From: Opitutales bacterium
GTDB lineage: Bacteria > Verrucomicrobiota > Verrucomicrobiia > Opitutales > JABSRG01
Direction: 5' to 3'
Length of the DNA stretch: 16,283 nucleotides
Assembly: GCA_049599475.1 (NCBI GenBank)
Contig: JBMYOQ010000083.1
Location: forward strand, 1 to 16,283
Below, in pieces: positions 3,344 through 15,957 of this stretch. Below the pieces are notes generated by a model, which worked only from the letters and a program-made list of their open reading frames with translations, was not told the origin of the DNA and did no database searches. The translations under genes were made by a program, and so were the position numbers. Each line of letters opens with the position of its first letter. Positions within the stretch are counted from its first letter, which is position 1.

Positions 3344-4669
3344 ATGGGATATAAGATCCTCATAGTCGACGACGACGCCACTTTCAACCAACTCCTGACA
3401 GACATCTTCCGACAGGCGGGTCACGACGTGGAATCCGTGCAGGATCCACTTTCCGCGCTCGAGCGTACGGAGTCAGAGGAATTGGATCTCCTAGTAACCG
3501 ACCATCGGATGCCGGAACTTACTGGCCATGAGCTATTTAAGCGAGTCCGTAAGGCTAAGCCGAACGTTCCCATTGTCATCGTCTCAGGATATTTGAGCAA
3601 TGCGAATATCCGCTCACTGATTGAGGAAGGTATCAATGGCGTTTACATCAAGCCCCTCAATGTGTTTGCCCTGCTGAAACAGGCCGAGGACTTGATTTCT
3701 CAATCCAAGATCGGCGAACTCGGCGCGCATCAGCGAACTCTGAGCGACAAGGAGACGAAGGACCATACCGACCGACTCCCCTTCCCTTTCAAAGCATTTC
3801 CCTGCGTCCACCAAAAGTCTGAAGCTTTCGCTCGGCGCCTTTTCGAGCTGCGTAATTTCAAATCGACCCTGGTCTTAATCGGAGCCGGCGGGACCCCGTT
3901 CAAGCAAATTTGCAACGATCTGGCCAACTTCGACACGGGCCAAACCGAGTATTTTGATTACCTGAATGCCAATCTGCTGAATTCAGACACCCTTTTCTCA
4001 CGTCTCAAGAGCGCCAAGGAGAAGGACGTCAGCCGATTGACGTTCGTAATCCGCGACCTCGAGAAAATCACAAATACGGGTCGAGATCTCATCGTCTCGC
4101 TGATCAAGGGAGAGCCCCCTTACGACGTCCTACCTTCCGGTTCGCGCGCAGTTTTCTGTACCAGCAAAGACGTAGATAATTTGTATGATGAAGGCCTCAT
4201 CGATGATCGCATGTATGTGCTCATGGGTGCGGGCGAGCTCAGAGTGCCCAGCCTTCGCTCAATCCCGGACGACATTCCTGCGCTAGCAAGACAACTCCTC
4301 GAGGAGATCGCCTCGAATCTCGGCCATTCTCAAATTCCAGTTCTAGGTGCCGGAAGCAGCAAGCTACTCAAGAGCTGGTCATGGTCGGGTAACTTAGAGG
4401 AGCTCAAAGAGACTTTAGAACGCGTCATTCGGGAAAACCCCAATGAAACCCTCACACCCGATATGTTTCAGGGCAAGAACAAGACATCAGAGGTGGCTGT
4501 CACCGAAGCCGATTTTATCGAGATGTTGAATGCTCAGAAGAAACAAATTCTGCAGGGCATTAAAACGATCGCTAATCATCGCCAAGACACCATAGAGGCC
4601 ATTCTGAACGGGGGAATTAGCCATACGGACTCATCAGGCAGTCCAATGAGTGAGCGCCAATCTGCTTAG
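3344..4669 (+). CDS. Response regulator: receiver domain fused to a degenerate NtrC-like AAA+ domain
   Basis: Receiver motifs KILIVDDD, LLVTDHRMPELTG, IVSGY, IKP. Downstream LRVPSLRSIPDDIPALA and WSWSGNLEELKETLER match the sigma54-activator lid. Walker A is degenerate (IGAGGTPF) and GAFTGA is absent. Confidence 0.85.
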   Translation: MGYKILIVDDDATFNQLLTDIFRQAGHDVESVQDPLSALERTESEELDLLVTDHRMPELTGHELFKRVRKAKPNVPIVIVSGYLSNANIRSLIEEGINGVYIKPLNVFALLKQAEDLISQSKIGELGAHQRTLSDKETKDHTDRLPFPFKAFPCVHQKSEAFARRLFELRNFKSTLVLIGAGGTPFKQICNDLANFDTGQTEYFDYLNANLLNSDTLFSRLKSAKEKDVSRLTFVIRDLEKITNTGRDLIVSLIKGEPPYDVLPSGSRAVFCTSKDVDNLYDEGLIDDRMYVLMGAGELRVPSLRSIPDDIPALARQLLEEIASNLGHSQIPVLGAGSSKLLKSWSWSGNLEELKETLERVIRENPNETLTPDMFQGKNKTSEVAVTEADFIEMLNAQKKQILQGIKTIANHRQDTIEAILNGGISHTDSSGSPMSERQSA

Positions 4670-4964: not shown

Positions 4965-4991
4965 AAAAAAGGCCCATATTATCTATGAGCC
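4965..4991 (-). terminator. Rho-independent terminator of the porin/small-protein operon
   Basis: Minus strand GGCTCATA-GATAA-TATGGGCC-TTTTTT: 8-bp stem with one U-G pair. A T-run on the other side may make it bidirectional. Confidence 0.75.
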
Positions 4992-5028: not shown

Positions 5029-5382
5029 TTATTTCACGATCAATACCTTGGCGCCGCCCTCTTCGCCGACTGGGACGTAGCCAAAACTGTTCTCATTTTC
5101 CATGACAAAACTGACCATAGATTCGACGTCTCCTTGTTCACGCGGCGCAATACCTTTACCCGTGAATATAAGCTTTTTCCAAGCGCGCTTGAATTGGCTT
5201 CCAGAGCGCCCAGTAATGGCCTTGATGACTGATTCATTAAAATCACCGCCCTTGTAGACAGCCAAGCGCACCGCACTGCCAGTCTCCCAGCGATTTAAAG
5301 CGCCCACCAAGATCGATTTAGCATCGGCGGCGCTAATCGAATTGGTCGCATTAGATGGATGCGTAATGATCGAATACTCAGC
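5029..5382. repeat. Near-identical direct repeat, copy 1 (pairs with 6896-7249)
   Basis: Manual alignment over 354 bp gives about 15 substitutions, all synonymous or in the stop codon (TAA vs TGA). Confidence 0.95.
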
Positions 5383-5442
5383 AGCATTTACGATAGAAGC
5401 AATCGTCAAAAAACCCGCAATAATGATTTTTCTAATGTTCAT
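5029..5442 (-). CDS. Small secreted periplasmic-binding-protein-like protein, copy A (family usually auto-annotated as phosphate ABC transporter substrate-binding protein)
   Basis: 20-aa signal peptide ending VNA, then IITHPSN...RWETG...WKKLIFTGKGIAP...FGYV. At 137 aa it is about half the size of a true PstS. Confidence 0.8.
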   Translation of the reverse strand: MNIRKIIIAGFLTIASIVNAAEYSIITHPSNATNSISAADAKSILVGALNRWETGSAVRLAVYKGGDFNESVIKAITGRSGSQFKRAWKKLIFTGKGIAPREQGDVESMVSFVMENENSFGYVPVGEEGGAKVLIVK

Positions 5443-5455
5443 CAGGATACCCGGG

Positions 5456-6742
5456 TTAGAATGTCATTGTAGTCTTGAAGACGTAATATTCCCAGGAATC
5501 ATTTGCGCTCAAGTCAACGCCGCGTGTGGTCTCTCCAATGATATTGGTACCATCCATAAAATGGGCTTCAGCTTTAAGGAGCAAAAAGTCCGTAAGCCAA
5601 TAACTTGCTGCCGCGGCGAAACCAGTGGTTTCATCATCCGGAACCTGGTAGTTTGCATCGTTTTCGGAGTATTGTATCCCGGCCGCAAGCTTCTCCGTAA
5701 ATTGATATGTGCCTTTCAAATACCATGCTCGTGATCGGATCAAGGGAGCCTCTTCGGTGCTCGTTACTCCCAAACCTGGAATAAAAAACACTGCATCCCC
5801 TTCTTGGTTTTTCACCTCAGCAGTGAAGGTAAAATCATTCAATGAATACTCCAAAAACGCGAACTCGGTGTGAATTTCGGCGTCTGTAATATTATTTGCC
5901 GTCCCTGCTAGCGCAATATCCCATGCTTGCTCTGGAGACAAACCAGGGATCCCTTGCAGCGCAAGTGCTTGAGCAACACCCGCACCAGTTGCCTGAGCGA
6001 ATGCTAGGCTTGTACCCGTAAGGTTATTCGTAAATTCGATGGTACTTTCGGCACTGCTCTCAGGAATATAGACCACAGAAGCACCCATACGTAAGCCGTC
6101 AATCGGAGTATTCCAGATACCCCATGCTCCATAGTTTACGCTTTCGATATCCCAACCCTCGAAAGTAGACCAGTCATTCACCGAGTTTTCGGTAAAATAG
6201 CTATCCCTATCAATATCATCGATCCACCCAGCAGTGAGTCTGTATTCGAACGAACCAGCAGAACCCAGTTCAATTAGCCCCCCTGCAGCAATACCATTAA
6301 TACTGGCTCCTAGAGGTCGCGCAGTTCTTGAATATAGCCCCAAGGGTAGCGTCGCAAAGGTTCTCACAACATCTAGATCTTGAGTATGGTTGTGAAGTCC
6401 ATTGTATAGTTTATTTTTACCTACCCAGACGCCGAATTCGGGCGTCCATTGATAGCTGACACCACCCCAATCTAGAATAATATCAGAATAACCATCCAAC
6501 GTGTAAGCATATAGCTGAGCGCCCACTTGAACACCATTGTCGAATTGATACATACCATTATAAATAAATTCGACACTGTTTAAATCCAGACTGTCAGCTT
6601 CCTCTACATAAAACGGATACTCAGTAGAATACGAAGCGGTCACACTCAGAGAGCCGCTGAAGTATATGTCGTCAAGCTCAATAGCTTGAAGCGACGCAGC
6701 CACCATTAGAGTAGCCATAGCTTTTGAAACACCTTTAATCAT
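5456..6742 (-). CDS. Outer-membrane porin-like beta-barrel protein, copy A
   Basis: Signal peptide ending LQA, amphipathic beta-strands rich in Y/F/W, C-terminal beta-signal (YYVFKTTMTF). Paralog of 7331-8608. Confidence 0.8.
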   Translation of the reverse strand: MIKGVSKAMATLMVAASLQAIELDDIYFSGSLSVTASYSTEYPFYVEEADSLDLNSVEFIYNGMYQFDNGVQVGAQLYAYTLDGYSDIILDWGGVSYQWTPEFGVWVGKNKLYNGLHNHTQDLDVVRTFATLPLGLYSRTARPLGASINGIAAGGLIELGSAGSFEYRLTAGWIDDIDRDSYFTENSVNDWSTFEGWDIESVNYGAWGIWNTPIDGLRMGASVVYIPESSAESTIEFTNNLTGTSLAFAQATGAGVAQALALQGIPGLSPEQAWDIALAGTANNITDAEIHTEFAFLEYSLNDFTFTAEVKNQEGDAVFFIPGLGVTSTEEAPLIRSRAWYLKGTYQFTEKLAAGIQYSENDANYQVPDDETTGFAAAASYWLTDFLLLKAEAHFMDGTNIIGETTRGVDLSANDSWEYYVFKTTMTF

Positions 6743-6813
6743 ATAGCAATATAGGTCTTTAGTTTGTATTTTTCGGCCCCTACAAAGTTTATACAGGAGA
6801 CCAGAAATAACGA

Positions 6814-6847
6814 GAGGTCAGCGGATGCATCAGGCATCCGTGACCTC
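6814..6847. other. Strong intercistronic hairpin between the two modules (partial terminator or stabilising stem)
   Basis: GAGGTCA-g-CGGATGC-atcag-GCATCCG-TGACCTC: 14 bp stem with one bulge. Only a weak U-rich tail (TCGTTATTT) follows on the minus strand. Confidence 0.7.
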
Positions 6848-6895
6848 ATTCAAATTCAATTTAAATCTCAGGCTATCAAGCACAGGTCGATTAGA

Positions 6896-7249
6896 TCATT
6901 TCACGATCAATACCTTAGCGCCGCCCTCTTCGCCGACTGGGACGTAGCCAAAACTGTTCTCGTTTTCCATGACAAAACTGACCATAGACTCTACGTCTCC
7001 TTGTTCACGCGGCGCGATACCTTTACCTGTGAAGATAAGCTTTTTCCAAGCACGCTTGAATTGGCTTCCAGAGCGCCCAGTAATGGCCTTGATGACTGAT
7101 TCATTAAAATCTCCGCCCTTGTAGACAGCCAAGCGCACCGCACTTCCAGTCTCCCAGCGATTTAAAGCGCCCACCAAGATCGATTTAGCATCGGCGGCAC
7201 TAATCGAATTGGTCGCATTAGATGGATGCGTAATGATTGAATATTCCGC
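6896..7249. repeat. Near-identical direct repeat, copy 2 (pairs with 5029-5382)
   Basis: Same alignment as copy 1, offset 1867 bp. Confidence 0.95.
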
Positions 7250-7309
7250 CGAGAAGGCATTCGCCCCCAAGAACAGCGTAATAATAGAGATGATGTATTT
7301 AAGTTTCAT
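6896..7309 (-). CDS. Small secreted periplasmic-binding-protein-like protein, copy B
   Basis: Different 20-aa signal peptide (MKLKYIISIITLFLGANAFS). The remaining 117 aa are identical to copy A. AAGGAAG ribosome-binding site upstream. Confidence 0.8.
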   Translation of the reverse strand: MKLKYIISIITLFLGANAFSAEYSIITHPSNATNSISAADAKSILVGALNRWETGSAVRLAVYKGGDFNESVIKAITGRSGSQFKRAWKKLIFTGKGIAPREQGDVESMVSFVMENENSFGYVPVGEEGGAKVLIVK

Positions 7310-7330
7310 GACTCGTTGCTTCCTTTTCGA

Positions 7331-8608
7331 TTAGAATGAGAGGGTGCTCTTGAAAACGAAGTACTCCCATGAGTCGTTGGCACTCAAATCTACACCTCGA
7401 ACCGACTGGCCAATGAGCGTGGTGCCATCCATAGCGTGTGCTTCGCCTTTAAGAAGTAGGAAATCGGTCAACCAGTAGCTTACCGCTACGGTGAAACCTT
7501 CGGTTTCGTTATTATCCGTTTGGTAATTCCCGTCGTATTCGGAATATTGAATCCCTGCACTGAGTTTATCCGAAAATTGATAGGTGGCCTCCAGGTAGTG
7601 TGCGTGCAGTCTTGCGAGCGGGGCCAGATCACTGCTCGTTGCACCTAAAGCTGGAATGAAGGCGCGTGTATATCCCTCATTTCGCGTAAATTCAGCGCTG
7701 AGAGTCAGATCGTTCCACACATACTCAATAAAACCATAATACATAAGGTAATCATTGTCATAGAGGGACGACTCAGTACCAGCTAATGCAAGATCCCAGG
7801 CTTCTGCTCCGGTCAACCCTGGAACCGGCAAAATCGGCGCAATTGAAGCTCCGATATCGGACGCTCTTGCGAGGTCGGTCCCCGTAAGGTTATTCGTATA
7901 CTCGAGCGATCCGGTTACTTCGAAGTCCGGATAGTAAACGAAGGAAGCTCCAATTTTGAGTCCGTCAATCGGAGTGCTCCATGCGCCCCATGCGGCATAA
8001 TTTAAATTCGAATTTTTGAGACCATTGTAGGTCGTGAAATCGTTGAAAGAATTCAAGATCATATAGCTATCCGCAGGGATACTATCTACGAATCCTGCAT
8101 TTAGTCGGTATTCGAATGCTCCCAAGGCACCCAGTTCTATATTCCCGCCTATTGCGATGCCATCCAGGCTCGCGGTGATCGGCCGAAGAGATCGACCATA
8201 CGCGACCAACGAAGGCGATGCGAAGGTTCTCACGACATCCAAGTCCTGCGTATGGTTATGCAGTCCGTTATAGAGCTTATTACGGCCTAGGGACACTCCA
8301 AATTCAGGTCGATATTGATAGCTCACTCCGCCCCAATCTAGGGCAATATCGGAGACGCCATCCAAGGTATATGCATACAGCTGCGCGCCCACCTGAACGC
8401 CGTTATCAAACTGATACATCCCGTTGTAGATAAACTCGACGATGCTCAGATCCAGACTGTCTGCCTCTTCAGAGTAAAAAGCGTAATCTGTCGAATAGGA
8501 TACAGTAGTACTCAAGGTCCCACTGAAGTAGATGTCATCTAGCTCAATTGCATTGACAAACGTAGACACAGACAAGGCTGCGGCCGTGGTAATAGCAGAT
8601 TTTTTCAT
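7331..8608 (-). CDS. Outer-membrane porin-like beta-barrel protein, copy B (425 aa)
   Basis: Start reassigned to the ATG at 8608 (MKKSAITTAAALSVSTFVNA signal peptide, then IELDDIYFSG as in copy A). C-terminal YFVFKSTLSF beta-signal. Confidence 0.8.
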   Translation of the reverse strand: MKKSAITTAAALSVSTFVNAIELDDIYFSGTLSTTVSYSTDYAFYSEEADSLDLSIVEFIYNGMYQFDNGVQVGAQLYAYTLDGVSDIALDWGGVSYQYRPEFGVSLGRNKLYNGLHNHTQDLDVVRTFASPSLVAYGRSLRPITASLDGIAIGGNIELGALGAFEYRLNAGFVDSIPADSYMILNSFNDFTTYNGLKNSNLNYAAWGAWSTPIDGLKIGASFVYYPDFEVTGSLEYTNNLTGTDLARASDIGASIAPILPVPGLTGAEAWDLALAGTESSLYDNDYLMYYGFIEYVWNDLTLSAEFTRNEGYTRAFIPALGATSSDLAPLARLHAHYLEATYQFSDKLSAGIQYSEYDGNYQTDNNETEGFTVAVSYWLTDFLLLKGEAHAMDGTTLIGQSVRGVDLSANDSWEYFVFKSTLSF

Positions 8609-8705
8609 GTGTAGTTTTCGGGTTTCAATTACCGATTCCCCAAAAGGCACACGCGAAACATAAAAGTACAACGCAAAACAACTCAGGAGAAACGAATCGA
8701 TATCT

Positions 8706-8732
8706 AATTCGCAATTAGGCACTCCAACTTTA
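8706..8732 (-). promoter_or_regulatory. Candidate sigma28-like promoter of the porin operon
   Basis: Minus strand TAAAG-N14-TGCGAATT. The -35 TAAAGTT matches the FliA consensus well, the -10 only partly. Confidence 0.25.
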
Positions 8733-8939
8733 GAAATATCGTCGGTTTTTAGTAAAATTTTCTCATTTTCAAAAATAAGAGCTCATGACCAATGCCGGGG
8801 CGCCTCTCTTTGCACGCACTGAGCAGCCCAGCACCACTGACCTCAAACCGATTTAAGCGCTCGAACCCCAAAATCACCCATGCTCCATCGTTCGAGGCCC
8901 TCCAATAATAATATAACGGTCTCAAACTTAAGTTTTCCT

Positions 8940-8966
8940 TCAAGTCGTATCAGCTTTGAGCGAACT
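8940..8966 (+). promoter_or_regulatory. Candidate sigma28-like promoter of the chemoreceptor gene
   Basis: TCAAG-N14-AGCGAACT, 48 nt before the ATG at 9015. Same geometry as the motif at 8706-8732. Confidence 0.25.
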
Positions 8967-9014
8967 ATGACGGGTGAACGTAGAAACGAATTTTAGCTGC
9001 CCTCAATAACAAGA

Positions 9015-10481
9015 ATGAAACGCAAATACAGTATTTCTGCCAAGATTGGCTTCGTTACCTTCATCCTTGTCGGTGCGTTTGCATCTACCGTAGCGATCAA
9101 CGTGCAAAATAGCAGAAGCCAAAGCACAGAGCTTGATGTCGTTGCCAATGCTATGGTTCCGGCGGCACTTGAGGCACAATCAGCCGCATACAATTACGAA
9201 AAAACCCTCAAACTCTTCGAAGAAGCAGTTCTGAACGGAGAAGAAAGCAATTTAGATCTCGTAGACGAACAATGCTCAATTGTAGCGGAGAAACTCATTC
9301 ACCTCTCGAACCGCCTACAAGACGTGAACGAGGGGGTAAGCCACATTGTAGCTGCTGCAGATGATGCTAAACTATACGCCGGCGAGGCGCGGACACTGTT
9401 TAACTTGCTTTCCGAAAAAGGCTTCGGCGACCCAGAGGTGACCGAAGCCTTTACCGCATTGAATACCCTGGGAGAATCCACAACGCAAAGCCTCTCAGAG
9501 ATTCGAGAGCTCACAGTAAAAAACACTCAGGGACAACTTGAGAGTATCAATCAAACTGCAGAGAGCCTCTGGAAGCTCGGACTGGGCATATTCTTCGGAT
9601 CTTTACTTGTCTCGATGGTCTTCACGATTTTCCTCGTCCGCTCTTCGATCGTAAAGCCCCTGCTCAAGAACAGCATCGGTCTAGACGAACGCACCGTAGA
9701 CATTCGCAATGCGGCAGACCATTTCAAGCACGCCAGCGAAGCCATCTCTGCCGGAGCTCACAAATCAGCCATGCTCCTTGAGGAAAGCTCCAGCGCCCTG
9801 AGCCAGATGACGAGCCTCACCGAGTCGAACGCCGAACGCGCGATGAATACCAAAAAGATGGCCCAAGACGCACGCTAAGCCGCAGACTCCGGCACGGAAT
9901 CAATGACAGAGTTATCCTCTGCAATGCAGGCCATCCTTCAATCCAGCGAGAACATTTCAAAAATCATCAACTCAATTGATGAAATTGCCTTTCAAACCAA
10001 TATCCTTGCCTTAAATGCTGCCGTAGAAGCGGCCCACGCCGGCGAGTCTGGCGCTGGATTCGCCGTAGTCGCTGAGGAGGTAAGAAATCTTGCTCAACGT
10101 TCGACCCAAGCCGCGGCAGATACAAAATCGCTCGTCGAGCAAGCAGTAGCGCGCAGCACCGAAGGCTCGAAGATTTCCGAGCGCGTAGAGAACGACCTCG
10201 AAGCCATCGTGAGCGCAGTGCGTGAGGTAGATCAAGAGATCGCCCAGATTTCAGTGGCATGCAACGAGCAGTCTCAGGGAATCGCTCAAGTATCTGGGGG
10301 CCTCGACCAACTGGAGAGCATGACCAAAGACAATTCGGACCTAGCCAATAGAACCACCGAGGGGGCAACCGAACTGACCTCTCATACAGATTCGCTTTCG
10401 GAAATTTCAGTGTCTCTCAATACTTTGACCCGAGGCAGCAGAGCCGAGCGCTCAAAACCAGTCGAAGAGCCTGAAGCCTAG
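9015..10481 (+). pseudogene. Methyl-accepting chemotaxis protein interrupted by one in-frame TAA at 9876-9878
   Basis: TM1 (IGFVTFILVGAFASTVAI), periplasmic helical domain, TM2 (LGLGIFFGSLLVSMVFTIFLV), and signalling hairpin [43 protein letters not shown]. The two ORFs are in frame ([14 protein letters not shown]) and would give 488 aa if read through. Confidence 0.9.
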
Positions 10482-10520: not shown

Positions 10521-11201
10521 CTAAGCCGCTTCATTCGGATTCTCTTTCCCGGCATCAGCTTGGATGATCCGCGAAACAGGATATGCGGCAAACATCCCAA
10601 CAACTGGCGCGAGGATATAGATCCATAAATCCCCTAAGTTTCCTGATACAAGGGCGGGACCCATAGAACGTGCGGGATTCATCGAAGCCCCTGTCATCGG
10701 TCCACCAAACATGGCGTCTAAGCCGACCGTACCACCGACTGCAACTCCGGCCATAATCCCCTTCTCCATGTGTGCGGTGGATACATTGAAAATCACAAAC
10801 ATCAGGATGAAAGACAGGAGCACTTCCATCAAAAATGTCTGCCAGAGTCCGGCATTCGGTAGAGTCGCCCCCAATGTTGGGTCTTCTGGAAACATTAGCT
10901 TTAAAAAGCCAGCACCGGCGATAGCGCCCAGAACTTGAGAAATCAAATACCCTGGGACCAGGCGTCCCTCAAAATCTTTCGACAGCCAAAAGGTCAAGGT
11001 GACCGCGGAGTTCATATGCGCTCCCGAGACATTCCCTATTGAATATATCAGGACCATCACCACCAGTCCCCAAGCGAGTGCCACGCCGGAATGCCCAAGC
11101 GCACCGTCAAAGGCGTTATTCGCGACAATGGCTCCGCAGCCTGCAAAGATGAGGATGAAAGTCCCGAAGAATTCGGCGATGTATTTACTTTTGTCAGTCA
11201 T
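10521..11201 (-). CDS. MIP-family channel, NIP-like aquaglyceroporin; probable arsenite channel
   Basis: AEFFGTFILIFAGCG, SGAHMNSAVT (NSA in loop B), GASMNPARS. Last gene of the ars operon. Confidence 0.92.
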   Translation of the reverse strand: MTDKSKYIAEFFGTFILIFAGCGAIVANNAFDGALGHSGVALAWGLVVMVLIYSIGNVSGAHMNSAVTLTFWLSKDFEGRLVPGYLISQVLGAIAGAGFLKLMFPEDPTLGATLPNAGLWQTFLMEVLLSFILMFVIFNVSTAHMEKGIMAGVAVGGTVGLDAMFGGPMTGASMNPARSMGPALVSGNLGDLWIYILAPVVGMFAAYPVSRIIQADAGKENPNEAA

Positions 11202-11220
11202 AGCAAAATCGTTCCTGGCA

Positions 11221-12177
11221 TCAAGAGAGCAAAGGTGCCAGCGCGTTCAAGAGATAGCCCGTACCTATTATTGCGAGCGTCGTAATCGCAAAATACAATG
11301 CGATCAAAGGTAACAACATCACCCGGCGCAGCATAATCGCTTCCGGCAGACTCAAGGCAGACATTGCCATCATAAAGGCCAAGGCAGTCCCGAGAGGTAT
11401 TCCTTTTTCAAACAGGACCGCAGCGATCGGCACAATTGTCGCACAACTCCCATACATAGGCACCCCGAGAACAGTAGCTAGGGGCACGGAGAAGACTCCC
11501 GTAGCCTGCATCATTCCATGTATAAATTCTTCCGGTACAAAATTATGAATCAAAGCACCTGCGCCCACGCCCACGATCACCCAGATCCAGACCTGTTTCA
11601 CAACAGATACAGACTCATCGAATCCGGCCTTCAAACGCCCAAACAAAGTATATCGATGGTCCTCGGGCACTGGCTCGGCACCTGAAGTAATGTCCTTCTC
11701 CAGCATACGCTCGAGGCCCATTTTACCCAGAATCGCTCCGGCCAAAGTTCCGATGGTCAATCCACTCGCGACATAGGCTACCGTAATAGGGACACCAAAT
11801 TCACCCGCCATCAAAATCACCAGATATTCATTAATGATCGGCGAAGTGACTAGAAACGAAAAGGTCACCCCCAAAGGAACACCCGCCTTGAGCAGACTGA
11901 TAAAGAGCGGGATCGAGGAACAAGAGCAAAACGGGGTCACCGCCCCAAATACAGCAGCAAAGAGATTCCCCCATAGTCCACCGCGGCCCATCCATTTTTT
12001 CAAGCGATGCTCAGGCAACCAGGTACGGACAAAGCCGATCACAAACACCATGGTGAACAGCAGAAAAAAGATCTTCAGAACGTCATACACAAAAAAGTGT
12101 AATGCAGCACCGCTACGACTTTCGGGATCCAGCCCCAAGAGTTGGTAGATCAGAATGTTGGCGAGTTTTTCAAACAC
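11221..12177 (-). CDS. arsP: ArsP-like (DUF318) permease
   Basis: Signature [22 protein letters not shown] and LSLPEAIML motifs, multiple TM segments, GTG start, ars context. Confidence 0.85.
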
Positions 12178-12194
12178 TGCTTACTTGTTAAAAG

Positions 12195-12326
12195 AAAGGA
12201 TGAAGGATGGTGATTTTCTTTGAAGGGGTTATGCGTCAATCAGTTAATCCGATTTTGTGATATTTTTTAGGATACAAAACTGCAGCAATTACGCTTTCAT
12301 CCCTCATCCTTCATCCCTCATCCTTT
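12195..12326. repeat. Inverted pair of heptamer tandem arrays, (T/C)TCATCC, in an intercistronic spacer
   Basis: AAAGGATGAAGGATG at 12195-12209 and TTCATCC-CTCATCC-TTCATCC-CTCATCC-TTT at 12296-12326. The outer 15 nt are complementary at 14/15 positions. Confidence 0.8.
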
Positions 12327-12336
12327 AAAAAACACC

Positions 12337-12522
12337 TCAGCAGCAACCGCCACCCTTTCCATCAGAGTCGCTACCGCAGCAGCTGTTCTCCGATTGCTCC
12401 TCGGCTTTGGCCTTCATTTTTTCATCGATTTTATTGAGCATTCGCCCAAAGAAACCTTCTTTCTTAGGCTCCTCGGCTTCGGCTCCACAGCATTCATTAT
12501 TTTCTTCTTTTGCAGTAGACAT
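12337..12522 (-). CDS. Small Cys-rich protein (61 aa, three CC pairs) in the ars operon
   Basis: ATG 18 nt after the arsC stop on the same strand. Sequence ECCG...GFFGRMLNKIDEKMKAKAEE...SCCG...GGCC. Confidence 0.75.
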   Translation of the reverse strand: MSTAKEENNECCGAEAEEPKKEGFFGRMLNKIDEKMKAKAEEQSENSCCGSDSDGKGGGCC

Positions 12523-12540
12523 GGTATTGGTTATTAAGGG

Positions 12541-12978
12541 CTATTTGGAAAGATTTTCGCGGTATCCGCTTACATATGCACCGAAGACCTTGGCAATCTC
12601 GTCCCGGATACGTTGAAAGGCCTGAAGCTCCGTTTCGTCGGCTCGAATAGCCTTGGGTGGATCTTCAAAGCCCCAGTGGTAACGGTTCACCATCCCCGGG
12701 AACATCGGACACGCGTCGTCGGCGTTTCCGCACACGGTAATGACGGTGTGAATACCCGCTTCCAAAAATTGATCGAGATGCTTGGACGTATGACCCGAGA
12801 CATCGATCCCAATTTCCTTCATGGCCTCTATGGCCATAGGGTGCACGTATCCCGCAGGCTTGGACCCCGCGCTGTGCACCTCAAAGAGGTCGCCCGCGAT
12901 ATCGCGCAAAATACCCTCAGCCATATGACTGCGGCACGAGTTTCCTGTGCAAAGAATTAAGACTTTTAATTTGCTCAT
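12541..12978 (-). CDS. arsC: Arsenate reductase, LMW-PTP fold (thioredoxin-coupled type)
   Basis: CTGNSCRS P-loop, ITVC...ACP resolving cysteines, HWGFEDP. Start at ATG 12978 (MSKLKVL). Confidence 0.93.
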
Positions 12979-12988
12979 AATAAAAAAG

Positions 12989-13396
12989 CTAACACCCATC
13001 CGAGCAGCATGCGGCGCGGCTCTGGCTGGCTATAAATTCAAGGGGGTCATCTTGCGAATCTGAGATACGCATCAAAATCGCATCTCGGCGGACTCGATCG
13101 TTCTTCAAGGTCTCAGAGACATCTGAATCAGCCTGAAGCGCAATAAGGATAGATTTCACCAATACACTCTCAGGCTCTGCCAATGAATACACCATCCACT
13201 GCGCCTTCCGTTCACTCTTCAGAACACCCTGCTCCTTAAGATACCGAAGCTGCTTGGAGACTTTCACCTGCTCCGCCTCGATGATCTCCTCAAAGTGACA
13301 CACGCACAGAGGCCCCGCATCCAAGGCACTGACAATCCGCAGCCGATGCAGATCGCTCAAAGCTTTGAATAGAGAAACACTTTCCATATCCTGCAT
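12989..13396 (-). CDS. arsR: ArsR/SmtB-family repressor (start may be 13387)
   Basis: [17 protein letters not shown] metal site, [13 protein letters not shown]-terminal CCSDGC. Confidence 0.92.
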
Positions 13397-13422
13397 ATTC
13401 CTTTTTAAGCATATGCAGTCAA
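13391..13422 (-). promoter_or_regulatory. ars promoter/operator
   Basis: Perfect 8-bp inverted repeat CTGCATAT-N12-ATATGCAG (13391-13418) overlapping a minus-strand -35 TTGACT (13417-13422) and a candidate -10 GAATAT (13395-13400). Confidence 0.7.
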
Positions 13423-13574
13423 GTGATTATTCCTAAATCCTAATATCTTGGGAAAATTTCGCAAAATTCGCCTAATTCAAAAACAATAACGTAACTAAAG
13501 TTGAATTCTTCCGAGGTGCACATATGGGTGAAACCCGAAACTTGAGTCCCAGACTCATCAACCCGATCAACTAC

Positions 13575-13952
13575 ATGAAAAAAGTAATCCTACTCCTCAG
13601 CGCCCTCGCCTTCTTGGCTCTTGGCTCTTTGAACGCCGATCACCACAAGGGTGATCTTGCTCCTAGCACACTGATCCACGTCGTAACGGTTACCTGGAAG
13701 CCAGAAGCGACAGAAGCCCAGATCCAAGCAGCTCTCGACGGAGTGAAGACTCTCGGTAAAGAGTTCGACGGCATCACACGTGTTTGGACGAAGACCGTAA
13801 AAGCACAAGGCGATCGCACTCACGCTTTCGTCATGGAGTTCAAAAGCGAAGCGGCCCTCAAAGAATACGCGGGCAGCGACGCTCAAAAGAAGTGGTATGA
13901 AGTCTACATCCCATACCGCAAGCGCAGCACCACTTTCGACATCACGAACTAA
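13575..13952 (+). CDS. Secreted Dabb-like (stress-responsive alpha/beta barrel) protein
   Basis: Signal peptide MKKVILLLSALAFLALGSLNA, then LIHVVTVTWKPEATEAQI...THAFVMEFKSEAALKEY. Start reassigned to 13575. Confidence 0.8.
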   Translation: MKKVILLLSALAFLALGSLNADHHKGDLAPSTLIHVVTVTWKPEATEAQIQAALDGVKTLGKEFDGITRVWTKTVKAQGDRTHAFVMEFKSEAALKEYAGSDAQKKWYEVYIPYRKRSTTFDITN

Positions 13953-13984
13953 TCCTATCCCGATAGGCTAAAAGTTCTCTTTAC

Positions 13985-14017
13985 AGCCCTGTATCCATGA
14001 CGGATACGGGGCTTTTT
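13985..14017 (+). terminator. Rho-independent terminator
   Basis: AGCCCTGTATCC-ATGAC-GGATACGGGGCT-TTTT: 12-bp stem with one U-G pair. Confidence 0.88.
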
Positions 14018-14166
14018 ATTGCAATGCGCTCAGAATACGTGCCTGACTCCCCCTCAATCCAAAAATTATGTCCTAAGCACTCACACAGGTGCTATTTCTT
14101 ATGACATCAAAATCCAGCGCCTAAACGTTACATCAACTTATGGCGCCCCTCCCAACACACTCAACG

Positions 14167-15957
14167 ATGTCGAAGACTCAAAATTCTACTCCCCGCCTCC
14201 TAATCTTAATGCTCACGGCGCTTCTTGGCGCCAAATCAGTGGCTCAAAGCCCCGATCACATGATCGATGACCCCACCCGAGAGGCTCGGATGCAATGGTG
14301 GCGCGAGGCACGGTTTGGCCTCTTCATTCACTGGGGCCTCTACAGTATCCCCGCAGGCGAATGGAAGGGCGAAATCTCAAAGAAGAATTACGCCGAATGG
14401 GCGATGCACAATTTTCAGATTCCTTACGAAGAATACAAGGAACTGGCGAAGGAATTTAACCCTACGGAGTTTGACCCCGAATACTGGGCTAAGCTCGCAG
14501 ACGAAGCGGGCATGGGCTACTTCGTTTTGACGACCAAGCACCACGACGGCTTCGCGCTGTTTGACTCCAAAGCTACCGACTACGACATGGTCGATGCGAC
14601 CCCCTATGGTCGCGATATTTTTGGACAATTAGTCGACGCGTTCCGTGATCGCGGCATGCGCGCCGGAGCCTACTACTCTCAAGACATCGACTGGAGTGCC
14701 CCGCAAGGATGGATCAAAAACTACAATACCTGGGACTATAGCATCTCTGAAGGCGACTACACGGCCTTCGACAAATACATGTATGAGAAATCTCTCCCTC
14801 AGGTAGAAGAGCTCGCCACAAACTATGGTGACGTCGATGTCTTTTGGTTCGATGTGCCACGCATGGTGAACAAGGAACGCGGTAAGGTCTTCCACGATCT
14901 CGTCCGCAAATACCAGCCGAATGCCGTAATAAGTGGGCGCATTGCCGTGCCTCAGGGAGCCTACGCAGATTATCTCGTCCCAGGAGACAATGGCTTCTAC
15001 ACCTCACCTCAGGGATTCGATTGGGAGTGCTGCGCTACGATGAACGAATCCTGGGGCTACACCAAGCATGAGAAAAAGGCCAAAAGCTCCGACGAAATCG
15101 TCATGGTTCTTCTCAAGACGGTGTCTTCTGGAGGTAACCTTCTCCTCAATATCGGACCCAAGCCCGACGGCACACTGCCCGCCGACCAAGTCAAAATCTT
15201 GGAGGACATCGCCGTCTGGATGAAGGACAACAAAGAGGCAATCCACGGCACGCAAGCGAACCCATTTAACGAATTCTTCGGATGGGGCTACTGCACCGTA
15301 AAAGGCAGTGACATCTACCTTCACGTCTCAGAATGGGAAGATGGAAAAGTCATCACAGTCCCACGTCTAAACAACAAAGTATCCAAACTTTCAGTACTCG
15401 GTGACAAGAAACGCAAGCTGTCTTACAAACACACAGATGGCGGCGTAGAAATCACTCTAAAGGGAGCCCCCGTGCACAACAGCGCGACAGTGATCAAGCT
15501 AAGCTGTGAAGGTGACTCTTTGGACATTTCTCCAGTAGACCTGAAGATGCAGCAAGGCTCGATTGCTCTGGAAACTCGATACGCCAAGAGCAAAGGGCAG
15601 CGCATGTCGACACTCCGCCACTCAATCGTCGGAGGCAAAGCGACCGCAGATATGTCTGGGGGCCACCCGAGCGAAGAGCTCGTATGGGAGTTCATTGCAG
15701 ACAAACCCGGCACCTACGCAATCACTGCTCTATGCATGGAGCCCGAAGATAAGAAGCTCCGAGAACGCACGATCAGCATCCAAACATCCGGCTCGAAGGT
15801 ATCTAAACAAGTCTCTACACAGAGCATAGAAAATGGGCAGATCCAAATCGGTGAGATCGAGATTGCGAAAGCGGGCCCAGTGAACCTGTCGATGAAAGTT
15901 TCAGGGGGTCGCGGCACTCCGATTTACCTAAAGTCGCTAAACCTCTCTCAATTATAA
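14167..15957 (+). CDS. Secreted alpha-L-fucosidase (GH29) with C-terminal beta-sandwich domains
   Basis: WWREARFGLFIHWGLYS, YAEW, LTTKHHDGF, VFWFD nucleophile, WECCATMNESWGY, GGNLLLNIGP. N-terminal signal peptide. Start is 14167 or 14140. Confidence 0.93.
   Translation: MSKTQNSTPRLLILMLTALLGAKSVAQSPDHMIDDPTREARMQWWREARFGLFIHWGLYSIPAGEWKGEISKKNYAEWAMHNFQIPYEEYKELAKEFNPTEFDPEYWAKLADEAGMGYFVLTTKHHDGFALFDSKATDYDMVDATPYGRDIFGQLVDAFRDRGMRAGAYYSQDIDWSAPQGWIKNYNTWDYSISEGDYTAFDKYMYEKSLPQVEELATNYGDVDVFWFDVPRMVNKERGKVFHDLVRKYQPNAVISGRIAVPQGAYADYLVPGDNGFYTSPQGFDWECCATMNESWGYTKHEKKAKSSDEIVMVLLKTVSSGGNLLLNIGPKPDGTLPADQVKILEDIAVWMKDNKEAIHGTQANPFNEFFGWGYCTVKGSDIYLHVSEWEDGKVITVPRLNNKVSKLSVLGDKKRKLSYKHTDGGVEITLKGAPVHNSATVIKLSCEGDSLDISPVDLKMQQGSIALETRYAKSKGQRMSTLRHSIVGGKATADMSGGHPSEELVWEFIADKPGTYAITALCMEPEDKKLRERTISIQTSGSKVSKQVSTQSIENGQIQIGEIEIAKAGPVNLSMKVSGGRGTPIYLKSLNLSQL

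Follow-up and report, generated by a model that had tools for sequence, protein, structure and literature searches.

Why should the genes of two porin-like outer-membrane barrels, each followed by the gene of a secreted protein resembling one half of the phosphate-binding protein PstS, lie back to back with a chemoreceptor gene? The question is raised by a stretch of DNA of 16,283 bp from an Opitutales bacterium (contig JBMYOQ010000083.1 of the assembly GCA_049599475.1), which is called the window hereafter; the window is the entire contig, and the genome from which it comes is 4.68 Mb long and 96.6% complete. The original prediction, made from the sequence without database searches, regarded the locus as a trans-envelope system for signalling rather than transport. 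According to our analysis, the best explanation of the window is that it contains the outer half of a module twice in tandem, together with the inner-membrane sensor of that module. As far as the sequences tell, the barrel, the single lobe and a sensor with a dedicated periplasmic domain constitute a three-part unit, which is conserved across phyla and unlinked to import by ATP-binding cassette (ABC) transporters, and we assign a probability of about 0.6 to the reading that this module of a porin, half of a periplasmic binding protein (PBP) and a sensor senses rather than transports.

The features of the locus are as follows (aa, amino acids; MCP, methyl-accepting chemotaxis protein):

7331-8608, minus strand: barrel A, a porin-like outer-membrane β-barrel of 425 aa, with ATG at 8608 and without a Pfam or NCBIfam family
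6896-7309, minus strand: small A, a secreted half-PstS-like protein of 137 aa with a 20-aa signal peptide
5456-6742, minus strand: barrel B, a porin-like outer-membrane β-barrel of 428 aa (AlphaFold2 model, Foldseek)
5029-5442, minus strand: small B, a secreted half-PstS-like protein of 137 aa (AlphaFold2 model, structure matches)
4971-4991, minus strand: terminator-like hairpin and T-run directly past small B (consensus match only)
8609-9014: divergent intergenic spacer of 406 bp between barrel A and the MCP
9015-10481, plus strand: MCP with two transmembrane segments and a module-specific periplasmic domain (about aa 33-185), interrupted by a stop codon
9876-9878, plus strand: in-frame TAA inside the MCP gene

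The gene neighbourhoods of the barrel/small pair were surveyed in two samples. The first comprised 201 genomes of the phylum to which the window belongs, ten of which, the window genome included, contain clear members of the small-protein family; 21 weaker matches in this sample occur in frames that span about 190-430 aa, for the most part close to 280-300, and are taken to be full-length PstS proteins, an assignment checked only for the C99 locus of the window genome. Eleven loci from the phylum genomes, two from the window genome and the window itself make up a set of 14, in 11 of which an MCP or a kinase lies directly beside the pair:

Co-directional MCPs: L037, L038, L039, L040, L042, L043 (twice), L046
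Divergent MCPs: L044 and the window
Hybrid kinase beside the pair: L047
CheX, CheY and HAMP kinase beside the pair: contig C108 of the window genome
No sensor beside the pair (3/14): the decayed copy on contig C6 of the window genome, L041 (cut by a contig end) and L045

At L045 the open reading frame (ORF) adjoining the pair has no Pfam match and is possibly called on the wrong strand. The second, wider sample comprised 79 loci selected by the motif WKK[LQ][IV]FTG (narrower alignment, A5) with one genome per species, one of them (L065) being the same contig as L038, and spans Verrucomicrobiota, Planctomycetota, Desulfobacterota, Cloacimonadota, Geobacter and others. In 75 of these loci a barrel gene lies no more than 400 nt from the small gene, two of the four misses being cut by contig ends, and in 44 an MCP occurs no more than 600 nt from the pair; a histidine kinase takes its place, with no MCP, in another five (L070, L109, L113, L114 and L117). 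In contrast, an ABC transporter component was identified by Pfam in none of the 232 neighbour ORFs from the two samples, the scan of the wider sample having covered 98 of its 124 listed neighbour ORFs. The tendency of such pairs to adjoin MCPs and kinases, named in the original prediction, is thus borne out, and the pair adjoins chemoreceptors or kinases far above chance (11/14 loci in the phylum, 49/79 in the wider sample).

Two of the phylum loci deserve a separate mention. L043 (G189:C1:738000-757900) is a tandem array with three small genes, four barrels and two MCPs. At L037 a Porin_O_P gene, a 179-aa protein without a family and an MCP stand in a row (12137-15294) beside the barrel/small/MCP module, and this row is possibly an analogous triad with different components. 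The 179-aa protein was considered as a half-PBP and rejected (hhalign probability 0.6%), and the Porin_O_P protein, considered as a member of the barrel family, shows only a weak likeness to it (probability 15%).

Do the sensors beside the pairs have anything in common apart from their position? The periplasmic segment of the window MCP alone (aa 33-185) was used as a query, and at E <= 1e-3 phmmer matched 25 of the 52 adjacent MCPs, 2 of the 14 adjacent kinases and 1 of the 14 non-adjacent MCPs, which rose to 41, 4 and 2, respectively, after one profile round; both non-adjacent MCPs matched are parted from a barrel/small pair by one spurious ORF alone. In the window genome the domain profile matches exactly two ORFs, the window MCP and a kinase on contig C108, both beside pairs, and none of the 15 other MCP-signal ORFs. 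The window MCP is the sole MCP of its genome with this module-specific periplasmic domain, and its own score on the profile (134.6 bits) is partly circular, because the profile was seeded with it. The kinase belongs to a fourth, distant copy of the pair (G000:C108; 5183-10132 of L006, minus strand), in which the small protein is 28% identical and an apparent operon comprises the barrel, the small protein, a CheX-like protein, a CheY-like protein and the 761-aa HAMP kinase, which carries the same periplasmic domain as the window MCP. The domain (alignment A6, 40 members) exhibits no consistent Pfam match and is not detectably related to 4HB_MCP_1, which is borne by a minority of the partner sensors (hhalign probability 7%). 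Over 40 triads the distances between the parts co-vary beyond what the MCP signalling domain accounts for (partial r 0.61 for small protein and barrel, 0.61 for barrel and sensor domain, 0.47 for small protein and sensor domain, permutation p = 0.001), which counts as weak support, since the relatives are not independent of each other.

The small protein, 117 aa long in its mature form, had been judged too short for a two-lobed PstS, and the structural analysis agrees with this judgement. The AlphaFold2 model of small B (predicted local distance difference test, pLDDT, 92.5) superposes on one lobe of solved PstS structures, with TM-scores of 0.62-0.66 (query length) and 0.31-0.37 (target length) for the ten best matches, and it lacks the two-lobed hinge (Venus-flytrap) that characterizes PstS and PBP_like_2; on the strength of this model, the small protein amounts to one lobe of a PstS-type binding protein. 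Neither of the window small proteins shows a match in Pfam or NCBIfam, even at E <= 10, while their relatives score 17-41 bits on the PBP_like_2 profile (Pfam gathering cut-off 27) and match only about 90-190 of its 267 positions. Both window proteins possess a signal peptide and lack a lipobox Cys. The profile of the family identified 3916 representatives (50% clustering) at E <= 1e-3 and 855 at E <= 1e-10, and among the 150 relatives listed nearly all are 135-155 aa long. Longer, fused forms were sought by a word-index search, which returned only full-length PstS-like proteins of 277 aa and is weak evidence against such fusions. A separate case is the protein P0033 (744 aa), a BlaR1-type M56 membrane sensor-protease with two half-PBP domains at its C-terminus, which, judged from its sequence, is an example of the lobe fused to an inner-membrane signal transducer.

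The resemblance to PstS suggests an obvious alternative, namely phosphate scavenging, in which a phosphate-selective porin and a small PstS would feed a Pst transporter. Apart from the PstS fold, it could draw on the weak profile similarity and on the one related locus with a Porin_O_P gene nearby. The R-E-D-G-S-G-T stretch of PstS, with the Arg of the C-terminal lobe and the Ser-Gly-Thr helix cap, is presumably what binds phosphate. In the HMMER alignment to 4q8r this stretch lies opposite Y-K-G-G-D-F-N in the window proteins and L-K-x-G-x-x-H in the family consensus, so that the phosphate ligand residues appear from the alignment to be replaced. A protein with one lobe only and with the R-x-D-G-S-G-T stretch replaced fits poorly with such a role, no pst or other ABC gene lies beside any pair, and a full, ordinary pstS-pstC-pstA-phoU locus (pstS with two permease genes and phoU) is present elsewhere in the genome, on contig C99. 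We therefore regard phosphate scavenging as scarcely credible.

The two small proteins of the window had been described as identical. This holds for the 117 mature residues, from residue 21 on, and fails for the signal peptides, which differ at 16 of 20 positions. The 117 codons of the mature parts differ by 15 synonymous and no non-synonymous changes, which, set against barrels of 62% identity and the diverged signal peptides, argues that selection has kept the mature small protein unchanged, whereas all its surroundings have diverged; gene conversion perhaps helped to keep the two copies alike.

The barrels A and B are identical at 265 of 428 residues, and their differences, judged by eye in the alignment, show no clear concentration in the outward loops. 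Neither barrel belongs to a curated porin family in Pfam or NCBIfam, and their relatives yield only weak matches to BBP2 or Porin_4. The fold was nevertheless confidently recognized for the model of barrel B (pLDDT 86.8), for which Foldseek retrieved classical porins at E-values of 6e-23 and below (TM-scores 0.42-0.53 by query length and 0.42-0.70 by target length). In the model 17 strands are assigned by DSSP, strand 5 is followed by a segment that turns inward, and residues 235-280 form a helical insertion; barrel A matches the barrel hidden Markov model, and both barrels end in Phe. The hallmarks of general porins (a barrel of 16-18 strands, an inward loop and a C-terminal aromatic residue) are thus present in the window barrels, and by the model the fold is that of the general porins, as the term porin-like had implied. 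Counting the strands from both termini suggests that the barrel is probably 18-stranded, with the insertion at 235-280 on the outside.

A direct link between the two outer components is predicted by a model of the complex of barrel B and the small protein, both in their mature forms (three runs and three controls, with our own alignments). The interface score ipSAE reached 0.85 in all three runs, with 75-80 contacts and a partner pLDDT of 91, against 0.00 for the best of the three controls, so that an interface of the kind asked for by the original prediction is indeed modelled. In the calibration 116 of 157 solved complexes and 2 of 215 mismatched pairs attained the ipSAE mark, counts which apply only approximately here, since our own alignments were used for the model. 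The prediction supports the view that the barrel and the small protein bind. On the side of the small protein the interface coincides with the most conserved stretch of the family (K89, K90 and F93-G97, with G95 invariant in 73 sequences), and on the side of the barrel it comprises the periplasmic ends of strands 1-6, an L3-like segment (118-125) and residues 299, 346 and 349, all of the named barrel contacts being at periplasmic strand ends or periplasmic turns according to the modelled strand list. Residues 92-99 of the small protein are predicted to meet barrel residues 59-75, 91-110 and 118-125. Because the barrel contacts are located at the periplasmic ends and at the L3-like segment, the model has the conserved loop of the small protein enter the channel from the periplasmic side. 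The barrel side of the interface is conserved both within the family (mean 0.57 versus 0.42 elsewhere, Mann-Whitney p = 1.7e-4) and between the two window barrels, which agree at 31 of 36 interface positions versus 227 of 371 elsewhere (Fisher p = 0.0017).

A tight predicted interface and strictly adjacent genes would also be expected of a chaperone or tether, that is of an envelope structural or assembly role of the small protein towards its barrel, with neither sensing nor gating. Nothing ties a PstS-type lobe to barrel assembly, and the association with sensors would be left unexplained, which makes such a role very improbable.

How might a module of this kind sense? In the sequence of events that we consider, the small protein would dock on the periplasmic mouth of the barrel, and its loop FTGKG (residues 92-99) would push into the channel toward the L3-like constriction segment; both of these points are predicted by the model. 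The state of the porin, for instance the presence or passage of a solute in its channel, would then alter the amount of docked small protein or its cargo, and the small protein would in turn act on the dedicated periplasmic domain of the adjacent sensor, which is an MCP in the window and an MCP or a histidine kinase elsewhere. With docking and a relay to a dedicated sensor domain, the module would sense and not feed an ABC importer. A more specific version, in which a solute occupying or crossing the channel releases or loads the half-PBP as a reversible plug and thereby switches on the sensor domain of the MCP or kinase, is offered tentatively, at somewhat less than even odds. The presence of two barrels that have diverged and share one invariant small partner is in keeping with a scheme in which one adaptor and one sensor serve two input channels.

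Sensor adjacency, neighbourhoods free of ABC genes and the predicted interface of barrel and small protein thus speak for signalling rather than transport and support the original proposal in part; the sensor of the window itself does not fit so well, and it heads a series of observations that weigh against the sensing interpretation. The divergent gene had been described as an MCP with two transmembrane segments, and its position and its MCPsignal domain uphold the description, while the gene is not intact: the in-frame TAA at 9876-9878 leaves a first piece of 287 aa and a second of 192 aa, and the MCPsignal domain (PF00015; 140 bits, E 8.7e-41) resides in the second only. At L044 an intact MCP of 489 aa is encoded divergently from a small/barrel pair, and the window MCP, read through the stop, is collinear with it, which argues for a nonsense change in a once-continuous gene, and TAA is an ordinary stop in this genome, because small B ends with it. 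In contigs of the sequencing run that is possibly the source of this DNA, the codon is covered at a depth of 23 with no alternative letter. A second, independent metagenome run, X2 (window 9656-9920), neither confirms nor contradicts the stop, since among the contig pieces listed for it one ends at 9875 and the next starts at 9920. A look-up of RNA runs that contain the MCP stretch listed none. Because the MCP carries a nonsense codon, we infer that chemotaxis output has probably been lost, or recently lost, in this genome. The barrel and small genes are nevertheless intact and constrained, so that the pair may work without this sensor, and selection on the window pairs despite a dead or dying chemotaxis branch leaves room for a sensor-independent role of the pair.

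Other points of the series concern the samples, the complex and the contact with the sensor. The 79 loci were picked by a single conserved motif, which samples only part of the family, and in 30 of them neither an MCP nor a kinase is adjacent. Two sensor-less contexts recur, both in Desulfobacterales. In the first (L078, L082, L091, L093, L100, L101, L102, L110 and L116) the pair adjoins a divergent tetratricopeptide repeat protein of about 930-1250 aa, seen in 7 of the 9 loci, and has an enoyl-CoA hydratase encoded downstream in 6 of the 9; in the second (L084, L098, L106 and L115, with contig ends truncating L106 and L115) a 395-aa protein and an FGE-sulfatase/PEGA protein come after the pair. 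As to the complex, its score is a measure of model confidence, the conservation on the small-protein side of the interface is not significant (0.54 versus 0.47, p = 0.18), and the model used the same alignments as the conservation count, so that interface conservation is not fully independent of it. Finally, that the small protein touches the sensor is a putative step, and adjacency and a shared domain would fit, too, a ligand that crosses the porin and binds the sensor directly.

Or perhaps the small protein is a valve, which plugs or gates the channel, with the sensor responding to the same solute or regulating the pair without contact to the small protein? The predicted docking, which places the conserved loop in the channel mouth, would suit a valve well, and so would the sensor-less loci and the constraint on the pair here despite the interrupted MCP. 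A valve leaves unexplained why MCPs and kinases should have in common a dedicated periplasmic domain found only beside pairs, and why barrel, small protein and sensor should follow each other in a regular order, and for these reasons we hold it, the strongest of the alternatives, to be unlikely.

The nonsense codon raises a further alternative, according to which the module is being lost in this genome and is no longer functional. Such decay is visible in a third barrel/small pair of the same genome (G000:C6:33908-35516, about 6900-8517 of L005), in which the barrel is broken into three pieces by TAA and TAG stops and about 50 residues are gone, a further point on the negative side for the sensing interpretation; the small gene of this pair is intact (71% identical), and there is no sensor beside it. 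For the window itself, the exclusively synonymous differences between the small genes and the two intact barrels with a conserved interface indicate recent selection, and a mere remnant is therefore quite improbable. The interpretation that we prefer remains that of a sensing module, the inner-membrane branch of which has been damaged in the window.

Few systems for outer-membrane sensing are known in bacteria with two membranes, TonB-dependent signalling, Rcs and NlpE being examples. Plug, TonB_dep_Rec and TonB domains, by which TonB-dependent cell-surface signalling would be recognized, were not found in the window by Pfam. The original prediction had likened the locus to YfiBNR, and as logic the analogy is sound, with one protein in the outer membrane, one in the periplasm and, as the third tier, a signalling enzyme in the inner membrane. 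It does not extend to the parts: YfiB is an OmpA/Pal-like lipoprotein, the fold of YfiR is unrelated and YfiN belongs to the GGDEF enzymes, and Pfam identified neither an OmpA/Pal-like lipoprotein nor a YfiR or GGDEF domain in the 16 window ORFs. The classical trimeric porins (VhChiP, OmpT/OmpU, Omp32 and OprP/OprO) share with the window barrels the fold and the segment that folds inward after strand 5, whereas the window barrels fall in no Pfam porin family, have the helical insertion at 235-280 and are accompanied by a dedicated periplasmic partner.

The module resembles binding-protein-dependent chemoreceptors, such as PstS-CtpL of Pseudomonas aeruginosa, in the proposed action of a PstS-type periplasmic protein upon the periplasmic part of a chemoreceptor. 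That PstS is two-lobed, clamps phosphate and belongs to an ABC transporter, and its gene stands with those of the transporter (PMC8050422), whereas the module has a single lobe devoid of the phosphate residues, encoded with a porin and a sensor, the domain of which is not HBM. The RcsF/OMP/IgaA system of stress sensing in enterobacteria (OMP, outer-membrane protein; PMC4942254, PMC9907809) is similar in that a small protein in an outer-membrane barrel informs an inner-membrane signalling protein, and different in that RcsF, a lipoprotein, passes through the barrel lumen to reach the cell surface, while the small protein of the module, which lacks a lipobox, is predicted to dock on the barrel from the periplasm; no parts of the two systems are homologous. 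In logic PstS-CtpL and RcsF come closest to the module, and neither has its defining parts. Engineered PBP halves demonstrate that a single lobe folds alone, and they were made in the laboratory to study fold evolution (PMC10601554, PMC9815098), unlike the small protein, which is a natural, widespread and free-standing lobe with partners of its own. The Geobacter chemosensory system esnABCD was considered as a relative and rejected, since EsnA has no periplasmic domain (PMC5585712).

The full-text literature searched, the coverage of which leaves out most subscription journals, yielded no description of the module and no natural free-standing PBP lobe paired with a porin, in accord with the statement of the original prediction that no functional characterization was known; the module thus appears to be an undescribed, new kind of envelope sensing system. 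If the sensing interpretation is true, it adds a widespread outer-membrane sensing system, with 3916 small-protein representatives in several phyla, and a natural case of a single PBP lobe working alone, which bears on the origin of the two-lobed fold. No curated family covers its parts, neither the barrel nor the natural half binding protein nor the sensor domain, which Pfam does not recognize. The module is testable in cultivable carriers, such as Desulfosarcina alkanivorans, a record of which is among the 79 loci.

As for the arrangement of the genes in the window, the four minus-strand ORFs and the plus-strand MCP were located exactly where they had been predicted, and the scan of 16 ORFs with Pfam agrees with the earlier remark that no ABC permease, ATPase or TonB gene is present among them. 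Intergenic gaps of 21 nt (barrel A to small A), 153 nt (small A to barrel B) and 13 nt (barrel B to small B) separate the genes of the two pairs. The terminator scan of the window detected no terminator-like hairpin between the two pairs; the hairpin past small B is itself weak evidence, as the scan gave 9 such sites, weakly above the 5.7 +/- 2.1 of shuffled sequence. The open frame of barrel A extends up to a GTG at 8722, and the ATG at 8608 is most likely the true start, judged from the alignment with barrel B, which begins there. With this start and the MCP start at 9015, the spacer between the divergent genes measures 406 bp, close to the 400 bp first estimated, and promoter-like matches in it are not in excess over shuffles.

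The module is flanked by further genes on both sides. Directly past the MCP an ars operon (10521-13396, minus strand) encodes a MIP channel, an ArsP permease, a low-molecular-weight phosphatase and ArsR; a link between this operon and the module was considered and dropped, because no other examined locus has an ars operon beside the pair. On the other side, convergent with small B, a response regulator is encoded (3344-4669, plus strand), for which Pfam reports no DNA-binding domain and which comprises a weak or degenerate sigma-54 interaction module and an AAA lid.

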